The translations under genes were made by a program, and so were the position numbers. From a virus (Duplodnaviria > Heunggongvirae > Uroviricota > Caudoviricetes), in IMG/VR virus record IMGVR_UViG_2531839668_000010, positions 1 through 9,617 of that record: a stretch of DNA of 9,617 nucleotides. One strand, written 5' to 3'. Below the pieces are notes generated by a model. That model ran no database searches. It worked only from the letters and a program-made list of their open reading frames with translations, and was not told the DNA's origin. Shown here piece after piece: positions 1 to 9,617 of this stretch; positions within the stretch are counted from its first letter, which is position 1; each line of letters begins with the position of its first letter.

Positions 1-219
1 TTACATCCACATAATTTGCTGCCCTGACGGCAACGGGTGCGGCCTTACGGCGTGGACTTCTCCCGGCTTCACGATGTATCGCTGTACCGACTCATAAGTG
101 ATGAACGTGGCGCTGCAATTCACGTTCTGACACTGGTGATAACGCTCTTTTGTCGTGTCAGTGATATAGCGACTTGTACGCGCATGTGCGGCATGCTGGC
201 ATAAAGGACAATGAAACAT
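1..219 (-). CDS. ogr: Ogr, zinc-finger late-gene transcriptional activator (P2 Ogr/Delta family), 72 aa
   Basis: Minus-strand ORF ending in TAA at 3..1. Translation from the ATG at 219..217 reads MFHCPLCQHAAHARTSRYITDTTKERYHQCQNVNCSATF...QQIMWM, which matches P2 Ogr as I recall it, including the CxxC-x22-CxxxxC zinc-binding cysteines. The ORF-track start at 294 is a TTG extension that runs through the predicted promoter, so I do not use it. A GGAAGAGG Shine-Dalgarno-like motif lies about 8 nt upstream of the ATG at 219. Confidence 0.9.
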   Translation of the reverse strand: MFHCPLCQHAAHARTSRYITDTTKERYHQCQNVNCSATFITYESVQRYIVKPGEVHAVRPHPLPSGQQIMWM

Positions 220-253
220 CGCGAGCACCTCTTCCGGTTTTGTTGATGGTGCC

Positions 254-282
254 ATTTTAGTTAATTTATCCTTATAAAACAA
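254..282 (-). promoter_or_regulatory. Putative sigma70 promoter for ogr (-35 TTGTTT, 17-bp spacer, -10 TAAAAT)
   Basis: Read on the minus strand: TTGTTT at 282..277, a 17-nt spacer, and TAAAAT at 259..254, about 35 nt upstream of the ogr ATG. This is a motif match only; ogr is known to have its own promoter in P2. Confidence 0.4.
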
Positions 283-300
283 ACAGATAAACAATAGACA

Positions 301-1464
301 TCACTCATCACCTTCTGTTTCGTACTCCACATCAGAAAGCCTGACCTCAAGCTCTAAGGACGTCGTGAAGCCGCTATTATTCAGAAAATGTGTCACCTTA
401 GTGATTGTCCAGTCCTGCTCGTCTATGACGCGCTTAAAGCCTGACACTTTAACCGGTGTTTCCGTGTAAATATCTGCCCGACCGGTAGCCAGGCTGATGG
501 AGAACTCCGCAACGCCCCGTTGCAGTTTATCCCACTTCGCCTGAGCGGCGCGCATGGCCTGCGCTTTCGTGGCATATACCGTGGTCAGGGCAAAAACGTT
601 GTCAGCCTCACCGGCCATGTATTCACCTTCACGCGCTTCCGGTACTTTAGGCGCTTTCTTCTGCCTGACCGGTTTCGCTTTCGGGTGCTCCAGTGCGCGC
701 AGGTGTTTCTCTTTCTTTTTGCGTTTCAGTTTTACCTTCTGCTTTTGAGGCTTCGGGTCTTTGGTGTGTAACCACTTTGCCGTTACGCCGGTGTAGGCTC
801 CACGGTCAGCAATCGCAAAATGATGGCGGTCGCCGTCGCTGCGGGTTATGGTGACCTGCGGGATTTTTTTACCGCTGGACGTCACCCCCTGCCCCGCTTT
901 GAGAAACAACAGTTTTCCCATTTTTACCGACACCTCACCGCCGTTGCGTTCAGCAAGGCGGGTCAGGAATTTTGCATCAGACTCCTGCGACTGGTCGATG
1001 TGCGGGATTTTAATTCCGGCCAGTGACGGAGCGACACTGGCTTCCAGCCTGTTACGGGAGGCTATCGCCTCAACAATCGCACCGAGCGTGGTGTCATGCC
1101 AGGAGCCTTCACGGCGGGAATTGAGCGTCCCGCGAAAATCTGCACTCCGGGCGCGGATGGTGACCACATCCGGAGCGCCCCGGTGTTCAACCTCATCAAC
1201 GGTAAATGTCCCTTTGCATACCAGGGCAAAACCTTTCCAGCCGATATAAACCGTCAGGACAGCGCCACGAACCGGCAGCCCGACCTGCCCGTCGGCATCG
1301 TTCAGTTCAATATCAAGCTGGTCAGCCTCAAAGCCCCGGTTATCCGTCAGGGTCATACTCATCAGACGGTCGCTGATATTGCCGGTAATATCCCTGCTGT
1401 CGAGCATCAGCATGTAATCCGGCGTCAGCGTACTGCCTGCATCAAATGTCAGCGCATCCAGCAT
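301..1464 (-). CDS. D: Phage tail protein D (P2 gpD, late control gene D family), 387 aa
   Basis: Full-length minus-strand ORF with ATG at 1464..1462 and stop at 303..301. Length and sequence (MLDALTFDAGSTLTPDYMLMLDSRDITGNISDRL...) match P2 gpD as I recall it. Its start overlaps the U stop (TAATG), indicating translational coupling, and it lies upstream of ogr as in P2. Confidence 0.9.
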   Translation of the reverse strand: MLDALTFDAGSTLTPDYMLMLDSRDITGNISDRLMSMTLTDNRGFEADQLDIELNDADGQVGLPVRGAVLTVYIGWKGFALVCKGTFTVDEVEHRGAPDVVTIRARSADFRGTLNSRREGSWHDTTLGAIVEAIASRNRLEASVAPSLAGIKIPHIDQSQESDAKFLTRLAERNGGEVSVKMGKLLFLKAGQGVTSSGKKIPQVTITRSDGDRHHFAIADRGAYTGVTAKWLHTKDPKPQKQKVKLKRKKKEKHLRALEHPKAKPVRQKKAPKVPEAREGEYMAGEADNVFALTTVYATKAQAMRAAQAKWDKLQRGVAEFSISLATGRADIYTETPVKVSGFKRVIDEQDWTITKVTHFLNNSGFTTSLELEVRLSDVEYETEGDE

Positions 1465-1943
1465 TATCCCGCCCCCGTCATACCCGTGAATTTAGTCGCC
1501 AGACTGCCAGCCTTACCGATGAGCGATTCCGCCTGTTTACCGATATCGCCATAAAGCGCGGCCAGTGATTCATCAACGCGGGTGAGTGACAGCGTAAAAT
1601 CAATTTTCCGGGGTGTGCCGTCTGCAAAGAAAATACTCCCTGTTTCACTCACCTTGCTGATGACATACATGCCGTAAATCATGCCCGTGCCATCCAGCAA
1701 CGGCCACGCCCGGCCTTCCTCTGCCATCAGTCTGAGCGTGGTCATCGTCAGCTTTCCGCCGGTCAGTTCAGGATAAAGCACACCGGCAAGCGTGATGTTT
1801 TCCTCACCCGCACCGAGAAACTGAAAGGCATCCCGTTTGCCGATACGGGAATTTGACGGCCAGCGATAATCTGATTCACGCTGCATGGTCTGGTGTGGCA
1901 GCGTCTGGCGCATAAAAACAAACATACCTAACGCGAGCATCAT
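1464..1943 (-). CDS. U: Phage tail protein U (P2 gpU), 159 aa
   Basis: Minus-strand ORF with ATG at 1943..1941 and TAA at 1466..1464 overlapping the D start. The length of 159 aa and the U-D-ogr synteny match P2. Confidence 0.85.
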   Translation of the reverse strand: MMLALGMFVFMRQTLPHQTMQRESDYRWPSNSRIGKRDAFQFLGAGEENITLAGVLYPELTGGKLTMTTLRLMAEEGRAWPLLDGTGMIYGMYVISKVSETGSIFFADGTPRKIDFTLSLTRVDESLAALYGDIGKQAESLIGKAGSLATKFTGMTGAG

Positions 1944-1944
1944 T

Positions 1945-2232
1945 TTTCGTTACACGCCGGAAATGAAAACCGCAATGGTGCTCAAGGCAAAAGACGTCAT
2001 CCGCCGTGGCTGTCTGGAATATGACGTCAGCGCCACCGACATCACCAGCTCGTTTATGGCTATCCGCAAGACCATGACCAGCAGCGGACGCAGCGCCACT
2101 TATGAGGCCAGCCGCAGCGAGGAAGCCAGCCACGCCGACCTCGCCTGGGCGACCATGCATGCCCTGTTAAATGAGCCACTCACCGCCGGTATCAGCACCC
2201 CGCTGACATCCACCATTCTGGAGTTTTACTGA
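1945..2232 (+). pseudogene. P: C-terminal remnant (~95 codons) of the terminase large/ATPase subunit gene P (P2 gpP), 5'-truncated
   Basis: A plus-strand frame is open from 1870 to TGA at 2230..2232, and that stop overlaps the Q start codon (TGATG), the coupled P-Q arrangement expected in P2. The sequence ...RSEEASHADLAWATMHALLNEPL resembles the C-terminal nuclease-domain end of large terminases. The frame cannot extend upstream of 1870 and the U start lies at 1943, so at most ~95 codons of P remain (P2 gpP is roughly 590 aa). The assignment rests on synteny and motif resemblance, not on an alignment. Confidence 0.5.
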
Positions 2233-3266
2233 TGAGCAAGAAAAAAGGGAAAACACCGCAGCCAGCGGTGAAAACAATGACCGCCAGCGCCCCGAAAATG
2301 GAGGCATTCACCTTTGGTGAGCCGGTGCCGGTACTCGACCGCCGTGACATTCTGGATTACGTCGAGTGCATCAGTAACGGCAGATGGTATGAGCCACCGG
2401 TCAGCTTTACCGGTCTGGCAAAAAGCCTGCGTGCTGCCGTGCATCACAGCTCACCGATTTACGTCAAACGCAATATTCTGGCCTCGACATTTCTCCCGCA
2501 CCCGTGGCTTTCCCAGCAGGATTTCAGCCGCTTTGTGCTGGATTTTCTGGTGTTCGGTAATGCGTTTCTGGAAAAGCGTTACAGCACCACCGGTAAGGTC
2601 ATCAGACTGGAAACCTCACCGGCAAAATATACCCGCCGTGGCGTGGAGGAGGATGTTTACTGGTGGGTGCCGTCCTTCAACGAGCCGACAGCTTTCACGC
2701 CCGGCTCCGTGTTTCACCTGCTGGAGCCGGATATTAATCAGGAGCTGTACGGCCTGCCGGAATATCTCAGCGCCCTTAATTCTGCCTGGCTGAATGAATC
2801 AGCCACACTGTTCCGCCGCAAGTATTACGAAAACGGCGCTCATGCCGGATACATCATGTACGTCACTGATGCCGTGCAGGATCGCAACGATATCGAAATG
2901 CTCCGCGAAAACATGGTGAAGTCGAAAGGCCGCAACAACTTTAAAAATCTGTTCCTCTATGCCCCACATGGGAAAGCCGACGGCATTAAAATTATCCCGC
3001 TCAGTGAGGTCGCAACGAAGGACGATTTTTTTAATATCAAAAAAGCCAGCGCCGCTGACCTGCTGGACGCGCACCGCATCCCCTTTCAGTTGATGGGAGG
3101 CAAGCCGGAGAACGTCGGGTCGCTGGGTGATATTGAGAAAGTGGCAAAGGTCTTTGTCCGCAATGAGCTTATCCCGTTACAGGACAGGATTCGGGAAATA
3201 AACGGCTGGCTCGGTCAGGAGGTCATCCGCTTTAAAAACTACTCACTGGACACTGACAACGACTGA
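2232..3266 (+). CDS. Q: Portal (capsid portal) protein, P2 gpQ, 344 aa
   Basis: Complete plus-strand ORF with ATG at 2232 and a GGAG motif 9 nt upstream. The sequence (MSKKKGKTPQPAVKTMTASAPKMEAFTFGEPVPVLDRRDILDYVECISNGRWYEPP...) and length match P2 gpQ as I recall it. It lies next to cos and is oriented away from it, as in P2. Confidence 0.9.
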   Translation: MSKKKGKTPQPAVKTMTASAPKMEAFTFGEPVPVLDRRDILDYVECISNGRWYEPPVSFTGLAKSLRAAVHHSSPIYVKRNILASTFLPHPWLSQQDFSRFVLDFLVFGNAFLEKRYSTTGKVIRLETSPAKYTRRGVEEDVYWWVPSFNEPTAFTPGSVFHLLEPDINQELYGLPEYLSALNSAWLNESATLFRRKYYENGAHAGYIMYVTDAVQDRNDIEMLRENMVKSKGRNNFKNLFLYAPHGKADGIKIIPLSEVATKDDFFNIKKASAADLLDAHRIPFQLMGGKPENVGSLGDIEKVAKVFVRNELIPLQDRIREINGWLGQEVIRFKNYSLDTDND

Positions 3267-3270
3267 ACAT

Positions 3271-3293
3271 CGCCGCCTGCGGGCGGCTTTTTT
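3271..3293 (+). terminator. Rho-independent terminator downstream of Q
   Basis: GC-rich hairpin GCCGCC-TGCG-GGCGGC (3272-3287) followed directly by a T6 run (3288-3293), 5 nt after the Q stop codon. Confidence 0.65.
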
Positions 3294-3435
3294 ACAACCC
3301 GCCATCACGCCCTCACACGCTCACCACCGCACAAAACAGCCCGCAGACACACCAACGCCCCGGCTAACAATCTAAACGCCATCACGACGCGCTCAGACGC
3401 TGAAAAAATAAAATCAGCACCACCGCCAGCGCGCA

Positions 3436-3454
3436 GTGCTTTCCCCGCCTCGCC
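3436..3454. other. P2-type cos site (19-nt cohesive-end sequence, joined form)
   Basis: The plus strand reads GTGCTTTCCCCGCCTCGCC, the reverse complement of the P2 19-nt cohesive end GGCGAGGCGGGGAAAGCAC as I recall it. It lies about 170 nt beyond the Q stop, the same relative position as at the P2 left end. Confidence 0.75.
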
Positions 3455-3541
3455 CGCCCGCTTCATGGGGCAGTTTGAATGCAGTTGAATCACTATCTTT
3501 AACCCGCACCAACACTACCTGAAGCTCATCAAAAAGATATT

Positions 3542-3580
3542 TTGAAACAAATGCATTATCATGCAACGTAACCATACAAT
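3542..3580 (+). promoter_or_regulatory. Candidate promoter region for the cargo ORF (TTGAAA -35-like at 3542-3547; TACAAT -10-like at 3575-3580)
   Basis: AT-rich region upstream of the cargo ATG at 3620 with individually good hexamers, but their spacing is not canonical. A strong AGGA ribosome-binding site lies at 3611-3614. Confidence 0.25.
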
Positions 3581-3619
3581 ATTGAGAATTGTGTTCTAGA
3601 AAAATCCAGAAGGAAAAAC

Positions 3620-4414
3620 ATGCAGATCAAAAAAGGAACAGTCTGGCATACTTACACAACCCAGTCACCAACATATGACAATGCGGAGGAAACTGCATCG
3701 CAATTAATCAAAACAGGTATGTTTTTGGCGATTTTAACCCCTGATAACACTTTTAAGTGTCTTTCAGGCTGTAATGTGTTATCAACAAAGTTATCAATGA
3801 AATACGAGAATAATGGAGTTAGCGTCAATTTGGGTGATGCTAATTTTTTAAACTCTCCCGGCTTATGCGATTTAACAATCCATTCATTCTACAATTGTAT
3901 CAACTTGAGACTATCAGAAAACAAACTATTCCATATCACAGAGCAATCATATTACAACAACATTATTTGTTGTCAAAAACCCATTTTATTTGGTTGCGGA
4001 GAAAATGAGTTTTTCTTAATTCCAATAATACGCCTATATCGAAATGGCATATCCCATATAACTTTCATCGACGAAGAACGTTATGATAATGAATTAAATT
4101 ATTTCATTGACACAAAAATAAATCTCCCTTTTAATGCCAGCAGTTCAATCATTGCCAGCACGGAGTATACAAACAGAGTCATTGAGCTTGACTTATCACC
4201 AATGAATTTGGTCCAGCGAGTTATAGCCAAGAGATTATTGTCAACACAAATCAAACAGGTGGAAGTAAAATCAAGAGATATATCTTGCGACAACTTAACA
4301 ATCAATGGAAAATATATTAACTACGCAAAAGAATTTGAACTACAAAATAGCTTAAGCGATATCGCTCGCACCACAATAGCAATAATTCACAACACATTAA
4401 GAAAAAAACACTAA
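3620..4414 (+). CDS. Hypothetical protein, 264 codons: N-terminal segment of a frameshift-split low-GC cargo ORF of unknown function
   Basis: ATG at 3620 preceded by AGGA with a 5-nt spacer. GC is about 30-40%, against about 55% in the flanking phage genes. I find no Walker A, HUH, reverse-transcriptase or other motif I recognise. The frame ends at TAA 4412-4414, just after an A7 run (4402-4408). Confidence 0.7.
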   Translation: MQIKKGTVWHTYTTQSPTYDNAEETASQLIKTGMFLAILTPDNTFKCLSGCNVLSTKLSMKYENNGVSVNLGDANFLNSPGLCDLTIHSFYNCINLRLSENKLFHITEQSYYNNIICCQKPILFGCGENEFFLIPIIRLYRNGISHITFIDEERYDNELNYFIDTKINLPFNASSSIIASTEYTNRVIELDLSPMNLVQRVIAKRLLSTQIKQVEVKSRDISCDNLTINGKYINYAKEFELQNSLSDIARTTIAIIHNTLRKKH

Positions 4415-5232
4415 AAGATATTTTATTTGGCAGAAAAACAACAGACTTCTATCATGGATGGCAAGGGAAACCTAATATTTATATTTTTAGCCATGACAAC
4501 CAAAAAAGCAACGCCAATAAAAATAGCAAATACAACAAACAATTAATATCTTCACTATTAAGCAAGAGCACTTTTTTTAATGATGAAAAAGACAAGCAAA
4601 ATCACATCGACCTCAGAGTATTTAATGACTTTAATTATTATTCAGAGCAAGGAGCAACCCTCACACTATGTTCAAAAAAAGTAGAATTTAAAAACATCAC
4701 AGATTCGTATTCCGAATCAAATATCATATGGGACAACCAAGTAAAAAGTGACCTGAGAGATTTTATATCTTTTTTTTACGAATCCAAAATAGAACAAGTC
4801 AAGAATGAGAACAACCATATTGGCCTAGCCACAACCCAAGAGGAAATCATTCAATTTGAGGAATGGTTAAGAGTCTTTTCAAAAAAATATGGAGAAATAC
4901 AAAACATTATATCCAACAACGTCCAGTCAAATGATTTAGAACTGGCTCGAAAGAACCTTGCCAAAATGTTAAAATCAAGAATGCAAGTTATAAAACTAAA
5001 AGATGCAAGCAAAAACGAAATAAGCAACAGGAATATTACTATAACGTTTGGCTTAGTTGCCTCAACATCTCTCTCACCTGTGATAACGAAACCACTCTTT
5101 GAAAACTCAGGTATTACCAAGATAATAAAACATCTTAATCTAGGTGGCTATACAGAAACCATTTATTATATTTTTTCCGCTATTTTTGTATCAGTAGTAT
5201 TATTGTTCATCAATAAACTCAACAGAAAATAA
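4408..5232 (+). CDS. Continuation of the cargo ORF in the -1 frame (~274 codons, no start codon of its own before 4966); predicted C-terminal transmembrane helix
   Basis: My manual translation shows this frame free of stop codons from 4351 to TAA at 5230-5232 (293 codons), in sequence where stops should be frequent. It contains no ATG, GTG or TTG until 4966, so the 88-aa ORF in the track (4966..5232) is only the tail of a longer coding frame. It overlaps the end of the upstream frame across 4351-4414. The C-terminus ...TIYYIFSAIFVSVVLLFINKL is a hydrophobic stretch of helix length. Confidence 0.6.
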   Translation, partial: TLKDILFGRKTTDFYHGWQGKPNIYIFSHDNQKSNANKNSKYNKQLISSLLSKSTFFNDEKDKQNHIDLRVFNDFNYYSEQGATLTLCSKKVEFKNITDSYSESNIIWDNQVKSDLRDFISFFYESKIEQVKNENNHIGLATTQEEIIQFEEWLRVFSKKYGEIQNIISNNVQSNDLELARKNLAKMLKSRMQVIKLKDASKNEISNRNITITFGLVASTSLSPVITKPLFENSGITKIIKHLNLGGYTETIYYIFSAIFVSVVLLFINKLNRK

Positions 5233-5764
5233 TCTCCTACCCCTGCGTTTATAAGTGGGGGTATAAATTACAAAATAGAACCTACATACCCATAACAAAA
5301 TAAATGATTTTTCATCAGAGGGCTTACACTCTCTTTGCACGCCAGTCACAACATCTTACTCTATTTCAAGGAACTATCTTCTTTACTGATGATTTTGTTT
5401 TCTTATACCATGCATTAACCCCCCAGGATTTTCCCGAAACCTCATAGCCATATTAGTGAATAACACCGCCATCAGACAAAATAAGCATCTATGACACATG
5501 AGAATTAATCCGCTTGACACAAGAAGCACCCACCCTGTGATTTTTGAAACATTAACTGATTATTTTTATTACTTGGCTCACGATGAGTTATACTTCGACA
5601 GAAGGTCACTCACAATGATTTTCTTAGCCAAATTAGATGCTCTTTTATATTTGAGTTAAATTACATGCTAACGATTCAATATAATTTAGTCTTCTATTTC
5701 AGTATACTATTGACCTTCTTCTGCCTTAGAGTCGCTCTGCATACCAAATTAGTTGTGTTTTTAC

Positions 5765-8041
5765 TCAAATGGATAACGAGAATCCCGGCCACTCATCAGC
5801 GACCGGATACGTGAATTTTTTCCCGTCGTAATTTACGGTTGCCCCACGCGCCAGCGCCTCAAGCTCCCATCGCTGAGGCCTGATACCATTCTGAACAAGG
5901 TCAACGCGGATACGGGTGATTTGCATTCGTTCCGACCGGGTCAGTCTGGCCGACGGTGCAATTTCATGTGTTTTTAACGGACTTCCGTTTCTTTGCTGAC
6001 GATTTGGTGTTTTCAGACCGTGTTTTAATGCTCCCCTGAGCGCCCTCACGACCTCCGGGTCATTCCATTCGATAACACCGTCATCAACCAGATTTAGCAC
6101 TGCTGCAGCGTGCTCAGAAGGTGTGGGAGCCGGTAACGAAGCATCACTACCGGTGAGCTTTCCACAGTTATTGACAGGACTCCGAGGCGCGGCGATGCCG
6201 CTTTTTAAAGTCAAAGGCTCAACGACCGGAACTTTCGGCACAATGCGCCAGTCCGTCGTTCTGGTGATATGAATATGACGCGCGCCGAGATGCGGCGCGT
6301 AAATGCCGACCACTCTCTCGACTTCTTCCTCGTACTCGTTAACGTCATCCGACAGACTACGGGCGACCCTGACAGTCTGACAATCGCGCGGGACATTTGC
6401 CCCGCCCTGCGCGCTGATATACAGCGCAAAATCACCACTGTCTGCGGCGGCGCGTGCAGCCTCGACGCGCTCGTCAAACTCATCAGCAATGCTGACGCCG
6501 CGAGGCAATTTGCGTAGTTCACGGTAAGCCCCCATTGTCGGCAGGCCAACCGTTTTAAATTGCGGAATGCGCCACGTTGACGCCCATGCGGTAACAGCCG
6601 CTGCAGTGTCTTTCAGCGGCCTGCCGGTGTCGTTATCGAGCTGACCATCCAGTGCATAGCCGTCGATGTTTTTTGAAATGTATTTCGCGATATATCCCGC
6701 AGCACCGCCCCGGTTAAGGTGTTTTGCCTGAAAACGGTTTCGCGCGGCTCCTCTTTCGTCGCCATCCTCTTTGAGCGCATAGCGACGCATGATTTCGATA
6801 ATCTGGTTACGCTGGCGTGGATGACAAAAAAGCATCATATGCCAGTGCGGCGTTCCGTCGTGGTGTGGCTCGACGACTCGCAAACCGTAGACCTGTAAAT
6901 CATTATCCTTGAATGCCGTGCGCATCAGGCTCCAGATACGGCAGAGATAACGCTGCGCATCCTTTGGATTAAATGCCTCATCGTTCCAGCCGTGATTAAG
7001 CTGAACGGTTTTACTTTCGCCTTTTCCGACCTGACGTGTCGGGTGATACTTTGACGGCGCGGTCAGCGTGATAAACATCCCCACATCACCCTCTGCGGCG
7101 GCGTAACGCTCAATACCGGCAATGGTGTTCATCAGCTCCATCCGGCGAATTTCAGGATTAGAAATACTGCCCATCACCTTACTGATAAGGTCGATGCGCT
7201 CGCCGGTTTCCCTGTTTTCAAGGTCACACGATTTAAGAAATTCCAGATTTGCCTGGCGGCGCGCACGCACATCACGAATGGCGTGTTTACTGGCATAAGG
7301 AGAACGGTCTTTATTGACCTCCCCGACAGCTATCAGTAACGCCTCATGCCAGCGCATACGCTGGCCTTTAAGCTGATGAGTCCACCACTCATCGTTAAAC
7401 AGGCGGGCAATGGCAGAATATGCCTGCCTCGTGGTCATCTGTCCTTTACGGTATTTTTTCCAGTAGAGCGGGGAAATATTGAAAGCACGTGCAGCGCCAG
7501 CAACATGACCATACAGGTGAGCCTGCGCCTCATCCGTAAACAGCGATTCTTTTTCACCATGCGCATCAACCCATGCATCGCAGAGTTCCTCATACATCAT
7601 GAAAAGCTGCGATGAGATACGGGCGGCAAACTTTTTCAGCTCCTTGTCATTCATTCCCGGCAGGCGCGCATAGTGGTCACGCTCTGCCAGAAACAGCAAC
7701 GACGCGTCGGTGTTCATTTCATGGCGCTGATTCACACGCTCAATGCGCGGCCATAAACGACACTGAAAAGTAGATGTGAGGAAATAAAACCCGTGCACCG
7801 GGCTTTTATTGCGCCGGATGTAGTCATAGCGTGAAGTAAACAGCGAGCGCAAAAAGTAAGGCAGGCGGTTAATCGTGGATAAAACACCTTGCACCTGACG
7901 CATCTCGTCACGTGTAAGAGGTCTTTCGCGCCCGACAGCCTCGCGTGGCGCGTTCCATGCATAAGCACCGGTAAACGCCTTACCGGTGCCTGCGGTAAAT
8001 GCTGACGGAGGGACAAAACGCCCGGAGACTTTAACGGCCAT
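5765..8041 (-). CDS. A: Replication initiation protein A (P2 gpA, HUH rolling-circle endonuclease), ~758 aa from the ATG at 8041
   Basis: Long minus-strand ORF ending in TAA at 5767..5765. It carries an HUH motif (PHWHMML, about nt 6830-6850) and paired tyrosines (GYIAKYIS, about nt 6680-6694), as expected for P2 gpA. The ORF track starts at a TTG at 8083 (772 aa); I prefer the in-frame ATG at 8041, which gives a length close to P2 gpA and a short overlap with the upstream ORF stop. Confidence 0.9.
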   Translation of the reverse strand: MAVKVSGRFVPPSAFTAGTGKAFTGAYAWNAPREAVGRERPLTRDEMRQVQGVLSTINRLPYFLRSLFTSRYDYIRRNKSPVHGFYFLTSTFQCRLWPRIERVNQRHEMNTDASLLFLAERDHYARLPGMNDKELKKFAARISSQLFMMYEELCDAWVDAHGEKESLFTDEAQAHLYGHVAGAARAFNISPLYWKKYRKGQMTTRQAYSAIARLFNDEWWTHQLKGQRMRWHEALLIAVGEVNKDRSPYASKHAIRDVRARRQANLEFLKSCDLENRETGERIDLISKVMGSISNPEIRRMELMNTIAGIERYAAAEGDVGMFITLTAPSKYHPTRQVGKGESKTVQLNHGWNDEAFNPKDAQRYLCRIWSLMRTAFKDNDLQVYGLRVVEPHHDGTPHWHMMLFCHPRQRNQIIEIMRRYALKEDGDERGAARNRFQAKHLNRGGAAGYIAKYISKNIDGYALDGQLDNDTGRPLKDTAAAVTAWASTWRIPQFKTVGLPTMGAYRELRKLPRGVSIADEFDERVEAARAAADSGDFALYISAQGGANVPRDCQTVRVARSLSDDVNEYEEEVERVVGIYAPHLGARHIHITRTTDWRIVPKVPVVEPLTLKSGIAAPRSPVNNCGKLTGSDASLPAPTPSEHAAAVLNLVDDGVIEWNDPEVVRALRGALKHGLKTPNRQQRNGSPLKTHEIAPSARLTRSERMQITRIRVDLVQNGIRPQRWELEALARGATVNYDGKKFTYPVADEWPGFSLSI

Positions 8042-8306
8042 ATGAGCCAAAAGCCTCTGAACAACGCTTGCTGAGTTGCTCAACCTGCGCGTTTAAATCA
8101 GCAAAAGATTTTGCGCTTCCGGTCAGAATATCGTGATGCATCAGGCCGGAAACGAGCTGGCCTAATTTCGGGTAATAACCAACCACCGCCAGCCATTCCT
8201 GACCGGCGTTTTTACCGCTTTCCGCTCTCTTTTTCTCGTGGAGAATAAACTGAAAGCTGTCACTGGTAACGACATAACGTTCGCCAATTTCAATACGAAT
8301 ACTCAT
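8031..8306 (-). CDS. Small early-operon protein of unknown function (P2 orf83-like position), 91 aa
   Basis: ATG at 8306..8304 overlaps the upstream gene's stop (ATGA). It sits immediately upstream of A in a tightly coupled operon, in the position of the small ORFs between B and A in P2. The specific orf number is not verified. Confidence 0.7.
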   Translation of the reverse strand: MSIRIEIGERYVVTSDSFQFILHEKKRAESGKNAGQEWLAVVGYYPKLGQLVSGLMHHDILTGSAKSFADLNAQVEQLSKRCSEAFGSYGR

Positions 8307-8527
8307 GCCGTTCTCCGGTAATGTTTGTTTTTTGCTTCAAAGACTGACTGACAGGAAACACAACGCGTGGCTGACGGATAAGCCGCACGACGGGCAGCAG
8401 GTATTGGCGCGTCACACTCTTCGCAAACCAGCGCAGAAACACCGCAATGTTTTACCCTTGCCGCGTTAATCTGGCGCTCCAGTAATTCAGCCTGTTGTTC
8501 CTGAATAAAATCTACGTTGTCCGGCAT
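8303..8527 (-). CDS. TraR/DksA-family C4 zinc-finger protein (P2 orf82-like), 74 aa
   Basis: Carries a CEEC-x17-CVSC four-cysteine motif typical of TraR/DksA C4 zinc fingers. Its start overlaps the upstream stop (TAATG). P2 has a TraR-like ORF at this position. Confidence 0.8.
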   Translation of the reverse strand: MPDNVDFIQEQQAELLERQINAARVKHCGVSALVCEECDAPIPAARRAAYPSATRCVSCQSVFEAKNKHYRRTA

Positions 8528-8829
8528 TACCAGCTCCTTTTGTCGTTCAGCTTCTTAAATTCATCAGCGCAATAACTGGCGAGTTCTGTCGTTAATTTTG
8601 TCAGTTCATCCACTGAGGAAATTTGCTTGTGGAATACAGCGCGTTTAACAAGTAAATTGACCACATCAGACAGGAGGTTTAATTCACTCTGATAAATCGC
8701 GATAACAGATTCAGTTATTTCGCGCTTCTCTTTATCAATACCAAGTTGAATAAGAGACAAATCACCATTTTTCATAACGGCGATTTTTAAGGCGTTATTC
8801 AGTAATACAACCGAACGAGAACAGGACAT
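8527..8829 (-). CDS. Small early-operon protein of unknown function (P2 orf81-like position), ~100 aa
   Basis: The ORF-track start at 8832 is a TTG. The ATG at 8829..8827 overlaps the upstream stop TGA (8831..8829) and is the likelier start. Confidence 0.65.
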   Translation of the reverse strand: MSCSRSVVLLNNALKIAVMKNGDLSLIQLGIDKEKREITESVIAIYQSELNLLSDVVNLLVKRAVFHKQISSVDELTKLTTELASYCADEFKKLNDKRSW

Positions 8830-9053
8830 CAAAGCACCTCCCCGCGAGACAATCCGATATTGTGAAATTTTTCCGACTCCTGACTGAGCAGCTCAACTAT
8901 CTCCACGCGGGATAACTCCGCCTTTGTGATGTGGCGAATCATGGCGTCAAGATGAGAAGAAAAGCGCGTCGCAGCGTCGGCCTGTGCTTCGGTTCTGGCC
9001 TGTTGCAGCAGTAATGCGTATTTACCGCACTGATTTTCAGAAACTGTATGCAT
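8829..9053 (-). CDS. Small early-operon protein of unknown function (P2 orf80-like position), 74 aa
   Basis: ATG at 9053..9051 with a GGAG motif about 9 nt upstream. It is the first gene after B in the operon. Confidence 0.65.
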
Positions 9054-9116
9054 GACTTTCTCCAGGCAAAAAGAAGCCCCGCACGATTAAGTGCGTTAAA
9101 AACTCTGGTTAATTAT

Positions 9117-9617
9117 TTAATGCAGATATTGCTCTGGTTTTACCGACGTCAGAATTGTCGGTGCATACTCAAACAGACTGAATAATTCACGTAATGCACG
9201 GAATAAAGCATCACGCCAGTAACATGATTCTTCATTAATTCGCCAGTACGGCTGATTGAATTCTTTTTCTGTCAATCCCGCATGCATAAATAAAGTACGA
9301 CGCTGACTGACTGTTAAAAAACTAATATATGCATACTCACTTGCGCCGACCTGACGGCGTTTTGAGAATGCGCCACGCAATTCATCAATTGCACAAACCA
9401 GTCGTTCACGTTCGACGTCGTTCATTTCTTCAAAACGCATCGTTGCGTGACGCTGTTTTAACTGCGCATGAAAGCAAACCGTTAGCCGTTCGCGCTCCAT
9501 CATGTGATTATAATAATCACATGTATCCTGCCAGCGAGGAACGGCAAGATGCTTACCAATTATCCGTCGCATAGCTGCTGGCTGTTTTTCAACGAGATTG
9601 AGCGTCATCACTGTCAT
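9117..9617 (-). CDS. B: Replication protein B (P2 gpB, helicase-loader-like), 166 aa
   Basis: Complete 166-aa minus-strand ORF whose ATG is the last three bases of the window. Length and sequence (MTVMTLNLVEKQPAAMRRIIGKHLAVPRWQDTC...) match P2 gpB as I recall it. It lies upstream of the small ORFs and A, as in the P2 early operon. Confidence 0.85.
   Translation of the reverse strand: MTVMTLNLVEKQPAAMRRIIGKHLAVPRWQDTCDYYNHMMERERLTVCFHAQLKQRHATMRFEEMNDVERERLVCAIDELRGAFSKRRQVGASEYAYISFLTVSQRRTLFMHAGLTEKEFNQPYWRINEESCYWRDALFRALRELFSLFEYAPTILTSVKPEQYLH

Follow-up and report, generated by a model that had tools for sequence, protein, structure and literature searches.

The DNA analysed here is a 9,617-nucleotide (nt) stretch, referred to as the window (IMG/VR record IMGVR_UViG_2531839668_000010, positions 1 to 9,617), that derives from a defective P2-like (Peduovirus) prophage of Escherichia coli. 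Window positions 1944–2232 are the scar of a real internal deletion, in which tail gene U was joined to the 3' end of P, the gene for the large subunit of the terminase. The P-side endpoint, P2 position 1502 in codon 498 of P, is one of a few preferred deletion endpoints in prophages of this type and has been used independently with at least nine partners, and the endpoints share a short palindromic motif centred on the dinucleotide TA. The explanation that we consider probable is that this is a true deletion scar at recurrent, motif-bearing endpoints, made by a protein that recognises these sites. On a broader view, which we put forward with about even confidence, P2-like E. coli prophages are dismantled not by random decay but by an undescribed, sequence-preferring break-and-rejoin activity that acts on short TA-centred palindromes (CSGNT|ANCSG), with codon 498 of P as a prime site, hybrid junctions that stay active and deletions that grow stepwise.

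The join between U and P

Except for a single-base indel near window position 4409, the whole window corresponds to the chromosome of E. coli O157:H16 strain 98-3133 (NZ_CP051001.1), in which the prophage occupies approximately 13.1 kb between pflB and pflA. BLAST against P2 (NC_001895) returned four colinear blocks at 96–97.5% identity: window 1–1953 aligned with P2 24254–22302 (ogr, D and U; 97.5%), 1951–3454 with P2 1502–1 (the P remnant, written 'P, and Q; 96.1%), 3436–3483 with P2 33593–33546 (cos) and 5778–9617 with P2 30297–26458 (A to B). The colinear order ogr-D-U ... P-Q-cos-(cargo)-A...B, the chromosomal attachment (att) site and the integrase identify the element as a P2-like prophage, and the host record carries int, C and cox at one side of it and pflB at the other.

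Alignment and the P2 annotation revealed that P2 1503–22304 (20,802 bp) is missing from both the window and the host locus. The genes lost are the 5' 497 codons of P together with O, N, M, L, X, Y, K, lysABC, R, S, V, W, J, I, H, G, FI, FII, E and T, and the promoters lost are the divergent pP/pO region, pV and pF, the P-operon promoter (P2 3016) lying within the deleted stretch. An original prediction, made from the letters of the window, had proposed that everything P2 carries between P and T was removed with the late promoters by one deletion of roughly 20 kb. The content and the size of the loss agree with our map to the nucleotide, while the claim of one deletion is not provable from the product, as a two-step route through a state like that of strain MFDS1001074 is possible.

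The P frame 5' of Q runs from 1951 to 2229, and its stop codon (2230–2232) overlaps the Q start at 2232, the two codons together spanning 2230–2234. It comprises 93 codons, close to the 95 or so that had been estimated, and 7 nt (1944–1950) separate it from the start codon of U (1941–1943), within the distance of about 20 nt proposed. The assignment of this remnant to the 3' end of P was borne out: window 1951–2232 (plus strand; codons 498–590 and the stop) is homologous to P2 1502–1221 at 96% identity, and the translated open reading frame (ORF) at 1885–2232 matches Pfam Terminase_6C over positions 73–154 of 155 (E = 1e-19). 'P is thus the C-terminal part of the nuclease domain and has neither a start codon nor a promoter to itself. 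The annotation of NZ_CP051001.1 shows this join as well, with a P pseudogene "missing N-terminus" beside an intact tail gene.

The alignment to P2 and the look for microhomology that the original prediction had recommended placed the breakpoints at P2 1502 and 22305. The 7 nt at 1944–1950 (TTTTCGT on the plus strand) are a remnant of the T–U intergenic spacer, identical to P2 22311–22305 and to the parental sequence in the sister strain MFDS1001074. This strain keeps T and the T–U spacer, which there reads TTAAGGAGGTA|ACGAAAAATG; just ACGAAAA of it is kept in the window. The parental sequences are ...TTTTTCGTTACCTCC on the U side (from MFDS1001074) and ...ATATCCGCTACACGCC on the P side, and the product is TTTTTCGTTACACGCC. 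Compared with P2 the join appeared blunt, whereas compared with the true parent MFDS1001074 both sides share TAC (window 1951–1953), a 3-nt microhomology that places the crossover between 1950|1951 and 1953|1954. Homology played no part in making the join, which lies between two short sites centred on TA, GCGTGTA|GCGG and GGAGGTA|ACGA.

No insertion sequence (IS), filler or repeat longer than 3 nt was detected at the join. Homologous recombination between repeats (about 20 bp or more) was rejected on the ground that the parental endpoints share TAC alone, and P2 holds no second copy of the breakpoint 24-mer within 8 mismatches. Adjacent deletion mediated by an IS was likewise rejected: P2 sequence reaches right up to the junction from either side, without added bases, and the sole IS of the element, an IS30 copy, lies about 7.7 kb off. 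Among 5,426 complete E. coli genomes, U and P sequence are adjacent in 98-3133 and K_EC180 only. A metagenome contig (L277; OGPO01007986.1, positions 1–1612) carries the U–P junction as in the window, with flanks that are 97.6% identical (2.4% divergent) and a different cargo region; its junction is either old and since recombined or has arisen twice at both endpoints.

Recurrent endpoints and their shared motif

The P-side site, X|TACACGCCGGAAATG, was found joined to nine distinct partners in ten genomes or contigs. The window and L277 share the partner in the T–U spacer (P2 22305). The other partners lie inside U in K_EC180 (P2 22412), whose prophage is near fieF with a different integrase and att site, in lysC in MFDS1001074 (P2 8380) and in T in NCTC9100 (P2 21297). 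In IMG/VR contigs they lie in FI (L018, P2 18478; L081, P2 18758) and in P itself (L031, P2 2538), and in metagenome contigs in H (L273, P2 12757) and J (L276, P2 11317). These deletions remove 1 to 20.9 kb. A 24-nt BLAST overlap seen in L031 was spurious. The NCTC9100 prophage (L005), besides its P–T deletion, contains at 14318–16099 a 1,782-bp ORF annotated as Cox-family, an apparent fusion from a second deletion that runs from A to the cox region.

Two of the junctions at 1502 were not selected on their P endpoint: K_EC180 was found because U and P lie close together, and L081 came from a scan of 120 loci that used an anchor 11 nt away and accepted any upstream context. In this unselected scan, P was full-length in 98 loci and extended past the end of the locus in 19; of the four truncated copies of P, one stopped at 1501/2, two stopped at 2117 and were joined to different partners, and one stopped at 2505. 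BLAST indicated roughly 21–30 truncated P copies in complete E. coli genomes.

Recurrence was also observed at other sites. We mapped 35 deletion junctions in P2-like prophages to P2 coordinates, a small set from mixed sources in which the way of finding the loci influences how the hot sites rank. P2 8379 was used five times, with partners at 1502, 10576, 10669, 18478 and 23806, and 18478, 18757/8, 8948/50, 18032/6, 10576/8 and 2117 were used twice each. Hot sites also pair with one another (1502 x 8380, 1502 x 18478, 8379 x 18478 and 8379 x 10576). Within the subset not selected for 1502, seven coincident endpoint pairs were present where 0.27 were expected (p = 1.5e-8).

The sequences at these endpoints are alike. 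TA lay in the crossover microhomology of 16 of the first 31 junctions, against 4% TA among dinucleotides (p = 7e-15), and in three of the four junctions mapped later; TA or TG was present in 21 of the 31. From 42–45 unique parental sites we derived the motif C(-6) S G(-4) N T(-2) R(-1) | N C(+2) S G(+4), the short form of which (given above, with A or G after the crossover) is dyad-symmetric round T|A with the core GNTANC. T at -2 and C at +2 each occur in 29 of 45 sites (p about 1e-8 each), and among the 26 sites with TR, C follows at +2 in 22 (p = 3e-8) and G at +4 in 19 (p = 5e-6). Conservation holds separately on the discarded flanks as well as on the retained ones, so the motif is a property of the intact sites rather than of microhomology or of what is kept. 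The 22.7-kb late region contains 74 exact matches to GNTRNCSG, 11 of which are observed endpoints.

Individual loci add detail to this set. IMG/VR contigs L031 (IMGVR_UViG_2541047837_000005) and L039 (IMGVR_UViG_2548876938_000002) are heavily decayed, with three or four colinear internal deletions each that leave late-gene islands of 160–1,000 bp in their original order and orientation. At 3800–7428 of L281 (W13-16), ogr directly abuts the final 59 codons of P (P2 24052 x 1398, with TA microhomology), and a reverse-transcriptase gene lies next to cos. The junction of L285 (P2 10930 x 19460) has CCGG microhomology in the context AATCCGGT, neither TA nor TG, which indicates that some events fall outside the motif.

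In every event at 1502 it is the 5' part of P that is lost and 'P-Q-cos that stays. The reciprocal class, which would keep the O side, had no match in IMG/VR when scanned for with two patterns. Of the 150-nt stretches flanking 1502, the one towards Q occurs in 1,801 places in complete genomes and the one towards O in 1,753, and about 18 of this excess of 48 are due to better detection of divergent phages. We suggest that the asymmetry reflects selection, in that losing lysis and late genes may be tolerated or favoured and deletions in the opposite direction would remove the cargo and replication genes.

The sister strain MFDS1001074 has the prophage of 98-3133 at the same chromosomal site, with 0 mismatches over window 1–1950 and 99.98% identity over 1951–8041; flanking host DNA of 98-3133 and MFDS1001074 differs by 1 mismatch in 4.5 kb, and the prophages are identical except in deletion state. 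A variant of the site-recognition explanation is that the window arose in two steps, through an MFDS1001074-like intermediate with the 6.9-kb P-to-lysC deletion followed by a lysC'-to-T deletion from the hybrid junction, and we regard this as possible though somewhat doubtful. It is consistent with the smaller MFDS1001074 deletion ending at the same P nucleotide (P2 1502 x 8380) and with its hybrid junction, GTGTA|TCCGG, still fitting the motif. However, an intact ancestor would yield this product by direct deletion too, nothing in the window separates the two routes, and relatives with intact P and the same cargo exist at 99.5–99.7% identity. Whichever route was taken, the same nucleotide must have been hit twice within a very short time.

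Candidate mechanisms and alternative explanations

The preference on both flanks of both partners, the crossover in the central dinucleotide and the occurrence of deletions only (no inversion between sites was seen among the mapped junctions) together point to a protein that breaks and rejoins two sites. Such a protein would recognise two intact sites and break and rejoin them within the central dinucleotide, and the chemistry could be that of a 2-nt-staggered nuclease followed by ligation or of a recombinase- or topoisomerase-like exchange. Loss of lethal late genes would let such deletions persist, which would account for the retention of the side that holds Q, cos and cargo.

Several points weigh against site recognition by a protein or reduce its strength. 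It is the motif that suggests recognition, and the candidates tested gave no fitting enzyme. Six of the ten junctions at 1502 were found by searches that demanded this endpoint, inflating its rank as the hottest site, and the unselected 120-locus sample has 1502 once as against P2 2117 twice. About one third of the junctions have neither TA nor TG at the crossover. For most junctions P2 serves as a surrogate for the true parent, and the IMG/VR and metagenome contigs come without host assignment. The argument for a 2-nt exchange region from mismatched central dinucleotides is weak because P2 is a surrogate parent; the TA x TG mismatch of the window itself vanished when the true parent was used. 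The appeal to selection for the asymmetry between retained sides is a further point of this kind.

Known activities of P2 and of its hosts were compared with the endpoints. Nicking by the P2 A protein, a rolling-circle Rep, at the origin or a pseudo-origin (GCGCCTCG|GAGTCCTG) was rejected, as the breakpoint has no similarity to it on either strand. Integrase action at a secondary att site was rejected as well: the att core GTCAGTTATTGGT is unrelated to the breakpoint, and prophages that differ in integrase and att site (pflB/pflA and fieF) use the same P endpoint. IS30 makes 2-bp target duplications at palindromic targets; its target in this prophage, AAAGGTC[AG]AGCCTTT, is off the motif, and no IS was found at any junction. 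Cleavage by terminase at a pseudo-cos was discarded since the nick contexts do not match, and the Rpn nucleases are reported without sequence specificity. There was no sign of recognition at a distance, of the kind shown by type IIS or type III restriction enzymes, no k-mer being enriched at a fixed offset within 45 nt, and hairpins or cruciforms at hot sites showed no consistent structure (z-scores +1.7 to -2.5). Topoisomerase I sites are AT-rich (TCNTTA), with C at -4 and the cut in TA (PMC9352719). At the endpoints the cut in TA is shared and C at -4 is possible on one strand, but the flanks are GC-rich with G at -3, and this motif, which agrees in part, does not seem to fit in register.

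Illegitimate recombination mediated by gyrase or topoisomerase IV, in which two cleavage complexes swap halves at preferred sites, appears unlikely to us. Gyrase is said to promote homology-independent recombination (work of Ikeda and co-workers); the endpoint sites are short GC-flanked palindromes with a central pyrimidine-purine step, and a published 133-bp gyrase consensus includes CGGCGGTAT....ATACCGCCG. The determinants of type IIA topoisomerases are -4G, -2A, -1T / +5A, +6T, +8C, with a 4-nt stagger (PMC10117906). No register of the endpoints fits both arms, with G not A at the +5 equivalent and TA not AT beside the cut, and the 4-nt crossover displacement predicted for half of the products was in no junction.

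Ordinary random illegitimate deletion, with shared endpoints due to coincidence or to selection for a P fragment, is very improbable. Defective prophages commonly lose late genes, and the searches that demanded 1502 inflated its count. Yet selection cannot hold nine events, each with another partner, to one exact nucleotide, and K_EC180 and L081, which were found regardless of their P endpoint, nevertheless end at 1502. Several other sites recur, the motif is conserved on the discarded flanks, and the p value given above for the coincident pairs speaks against coincidence.

We give similarly little credence to a selected mini-P2, i.e., a helper-dependent, satellite-like element whose endpoints reflect selection for packaging size. 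The element does keep cos, ori/A, int/cox and ogr, which are what a packageable replicon needs, and its 13.1 kb include a 1.2-kb IS30, so that without IS30 it measures about 11.9 kb, roughly one third of P2; sid mutants of the satellite P4 are reportedly packaged as multimers in P2-size heads. Against this, no size is preferred among the deletions at 1502, IS30 interrupts the early operon between cox and B, genes for capsid size, helper control or helper manipulation are absent, and the exact element is present in one complete genome only.

That the join is an assembly artefact, with P-O...T really present but collapsed, can practically be dismissed: no support for it was found (the window differs from the current RefSeq sequence by one indel, elsewhere), the join sits in a finished chromosome with no repeat able to mislead an assembler, the same junction occurs in the independent metagenome contig L277, and deletions in sister and unrelated genomes stop at this very nucleotide of P.

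The remaining prophage and its relatives

What remains of the prophage is int, C, cox, B, A/ori, the cargo, cos, Q, U, D and ogr. On the minus strand at the start of the window are intact ogr, the late-gene activator (1–219; 72 aa; 97.5% identical to P2 24254–24036 and annotated ogrK in NZ_CP051001.1), intact tail gene D (301–1464; 387 aa; colinear with P2 D and annotated "late control D family protein") and tail gene U (1464–1943; 159 aa), whose coding sequence is intact in the ORF list and the P2 alignment. On the plus strand, ORF list, P2 alignment and annotation agree on an intact portal gene Q (2232–3266; 344 aa), which is followed by the terminator tQ (3272–3293), a GC hairpin and T run read in the sequence and carried over by alignment from the P2 feature at 160–181. 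The 19-nt cohesive-end sequence cos (3436–3454; GGCGAGGCGGGGAAAGCAC on the complementary strand) was placed by the overlap of the alignments to both P2 ends. Beyond the cargo, the minus strand carries intact replication gene A with ori (5766–8042; 97% identical to P2 A and annotated "replication endonuclease") and the early genes orf83, orf82, orf81, orf80 and B (8032–9617), which are colinear with P2 28044–26458 and supported by annotation; B is cut at the window end.

The cargo gene (3620–5233, plus strand) stands at the P2 old/tin position, has low GC content and encodes a 537-aa hypothetical protein. The window copy is frameshifted near 4409 by a one-base indel relative to NZ_CP051001.1, where the frame is intact. 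The protein had no Pfam match above the curated cut-off and no PADLOC match. The gene is present in 12 of the 5,426 complete genomes, and in TUM11352 it is also on an 88-kb plasmid.

The prophage of 98-3133 is doubly crippled, because an IS30 insertion in the early operon accompanies the late deletion. Of a complete virion-forming P2-like prophage, the head, lysis, baseplate, fibre, sheath, tube and tape-measure genes and four late promoters are absent. Its gene content supports the view that the element would be unable to build virions alone, since it is without capsid, scaffold, small terminase, lysis, baseplate, fibre, sheath, tube and tape-measure genes; a defective prophage had been predicted on the same grounds, and no structural or lysis gene is left between P and U. 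The Shine-Dalgarno sequence of U (AAGGAGG in the parent) was deleted and pF was lost, and Q is without the late promoter pP. Judged from sequence and the P2 annotation, the intact U, D and Q frames are probably silent, because the late promoters and the U Shine-Dalgarno sequence have been lost. The IS30 copy lies outside the window at L001 21950–23172, at P2 26426/7 between cox/orf78 and B, and has duplicated 2 bp (AG) of its target. The insertion interrupts the early operon on the upstream side of B and A and should be polar on both. The prophage is bounded by an att repeat of 13–19 nt, which includes the att core given above and lies at L001 12176–12194 and 25272–25290. The integrase-side repeat lies inside the annotated pflA coding sequence, so the 5' end of pflA seems to be provided by the phage end.

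Cryptic P2-like prophages of E. coli include the ogrK-D' remnant of K-12 and the defective P2-related prophage of E. coli B. Like these, the present element has lost late genes, keeps ogr with tail and early parts, occupies an att site and makes no virions alone; unlike them, its scar is mapped to the nucleotide, and its P endpoint is common to independent deletions in unrelated strains. The satellite P4 is likewise small and integrated and, though devoid of structural genes, has cos, an integrase, replication genes of its own and a late-gene activator. The present element, by contrast, arose directly by deletion from a phage of the helper type, lacks genes for capsid remodelling or helper derepression and has its early operon split by IS30, and no sign of its mobilisation was found.

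Deletion hotspots at protein-defined sites have reportedly been described at the origin nick of M13 or pC194 and at fork arrest by terB (Michel, Ehrlich, Bierne). The resemblance lies in an endpoint fixed to the nucleotide, varied partners and little or no homology; the differences are that our endpoint does not resemble the P2 A nick site and that its partners follow the motif and recur. Because the partners are non-random and recurrent, both ends look like sites. Serine recombinases acting at pseudo-sites, or 2-nt-staggered cuts, share with the junctions short dyad sites, a central-dinucleotide crossover usually identical in the partners and an outcome of deletions only. Unlike in those systems, the half-sites are about 5 bp and the element contains no such recombinase or nuclease, and the likeness is one of sequence alone. 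To our knowledge the motif matches no hix, gix or res site. Of the precedents of origin nicking, terB and gyrase, none fits in detail. Our literature search found no description of P2 deletion hotspots, endpoint recurrence, TA-centred prophage scars or the motif.

A deleted P2 prophage is in itself routine, and a defective one is familiar; what is not familiar, and what counts here, is that the nucleotide of the scar is reused by independent deletions and that the endpoints share a palindromic motif. One caution that follows for comparisons among strains is that shared prophage scars need not mean shared ancestry. If an enzyme is responsible, prophage domestication would be partly deterministic and its decay products predictable, and a simple assay on P2 lysogens could reveal the activity, whether it belongs to the host, to a phage or to a competing element.

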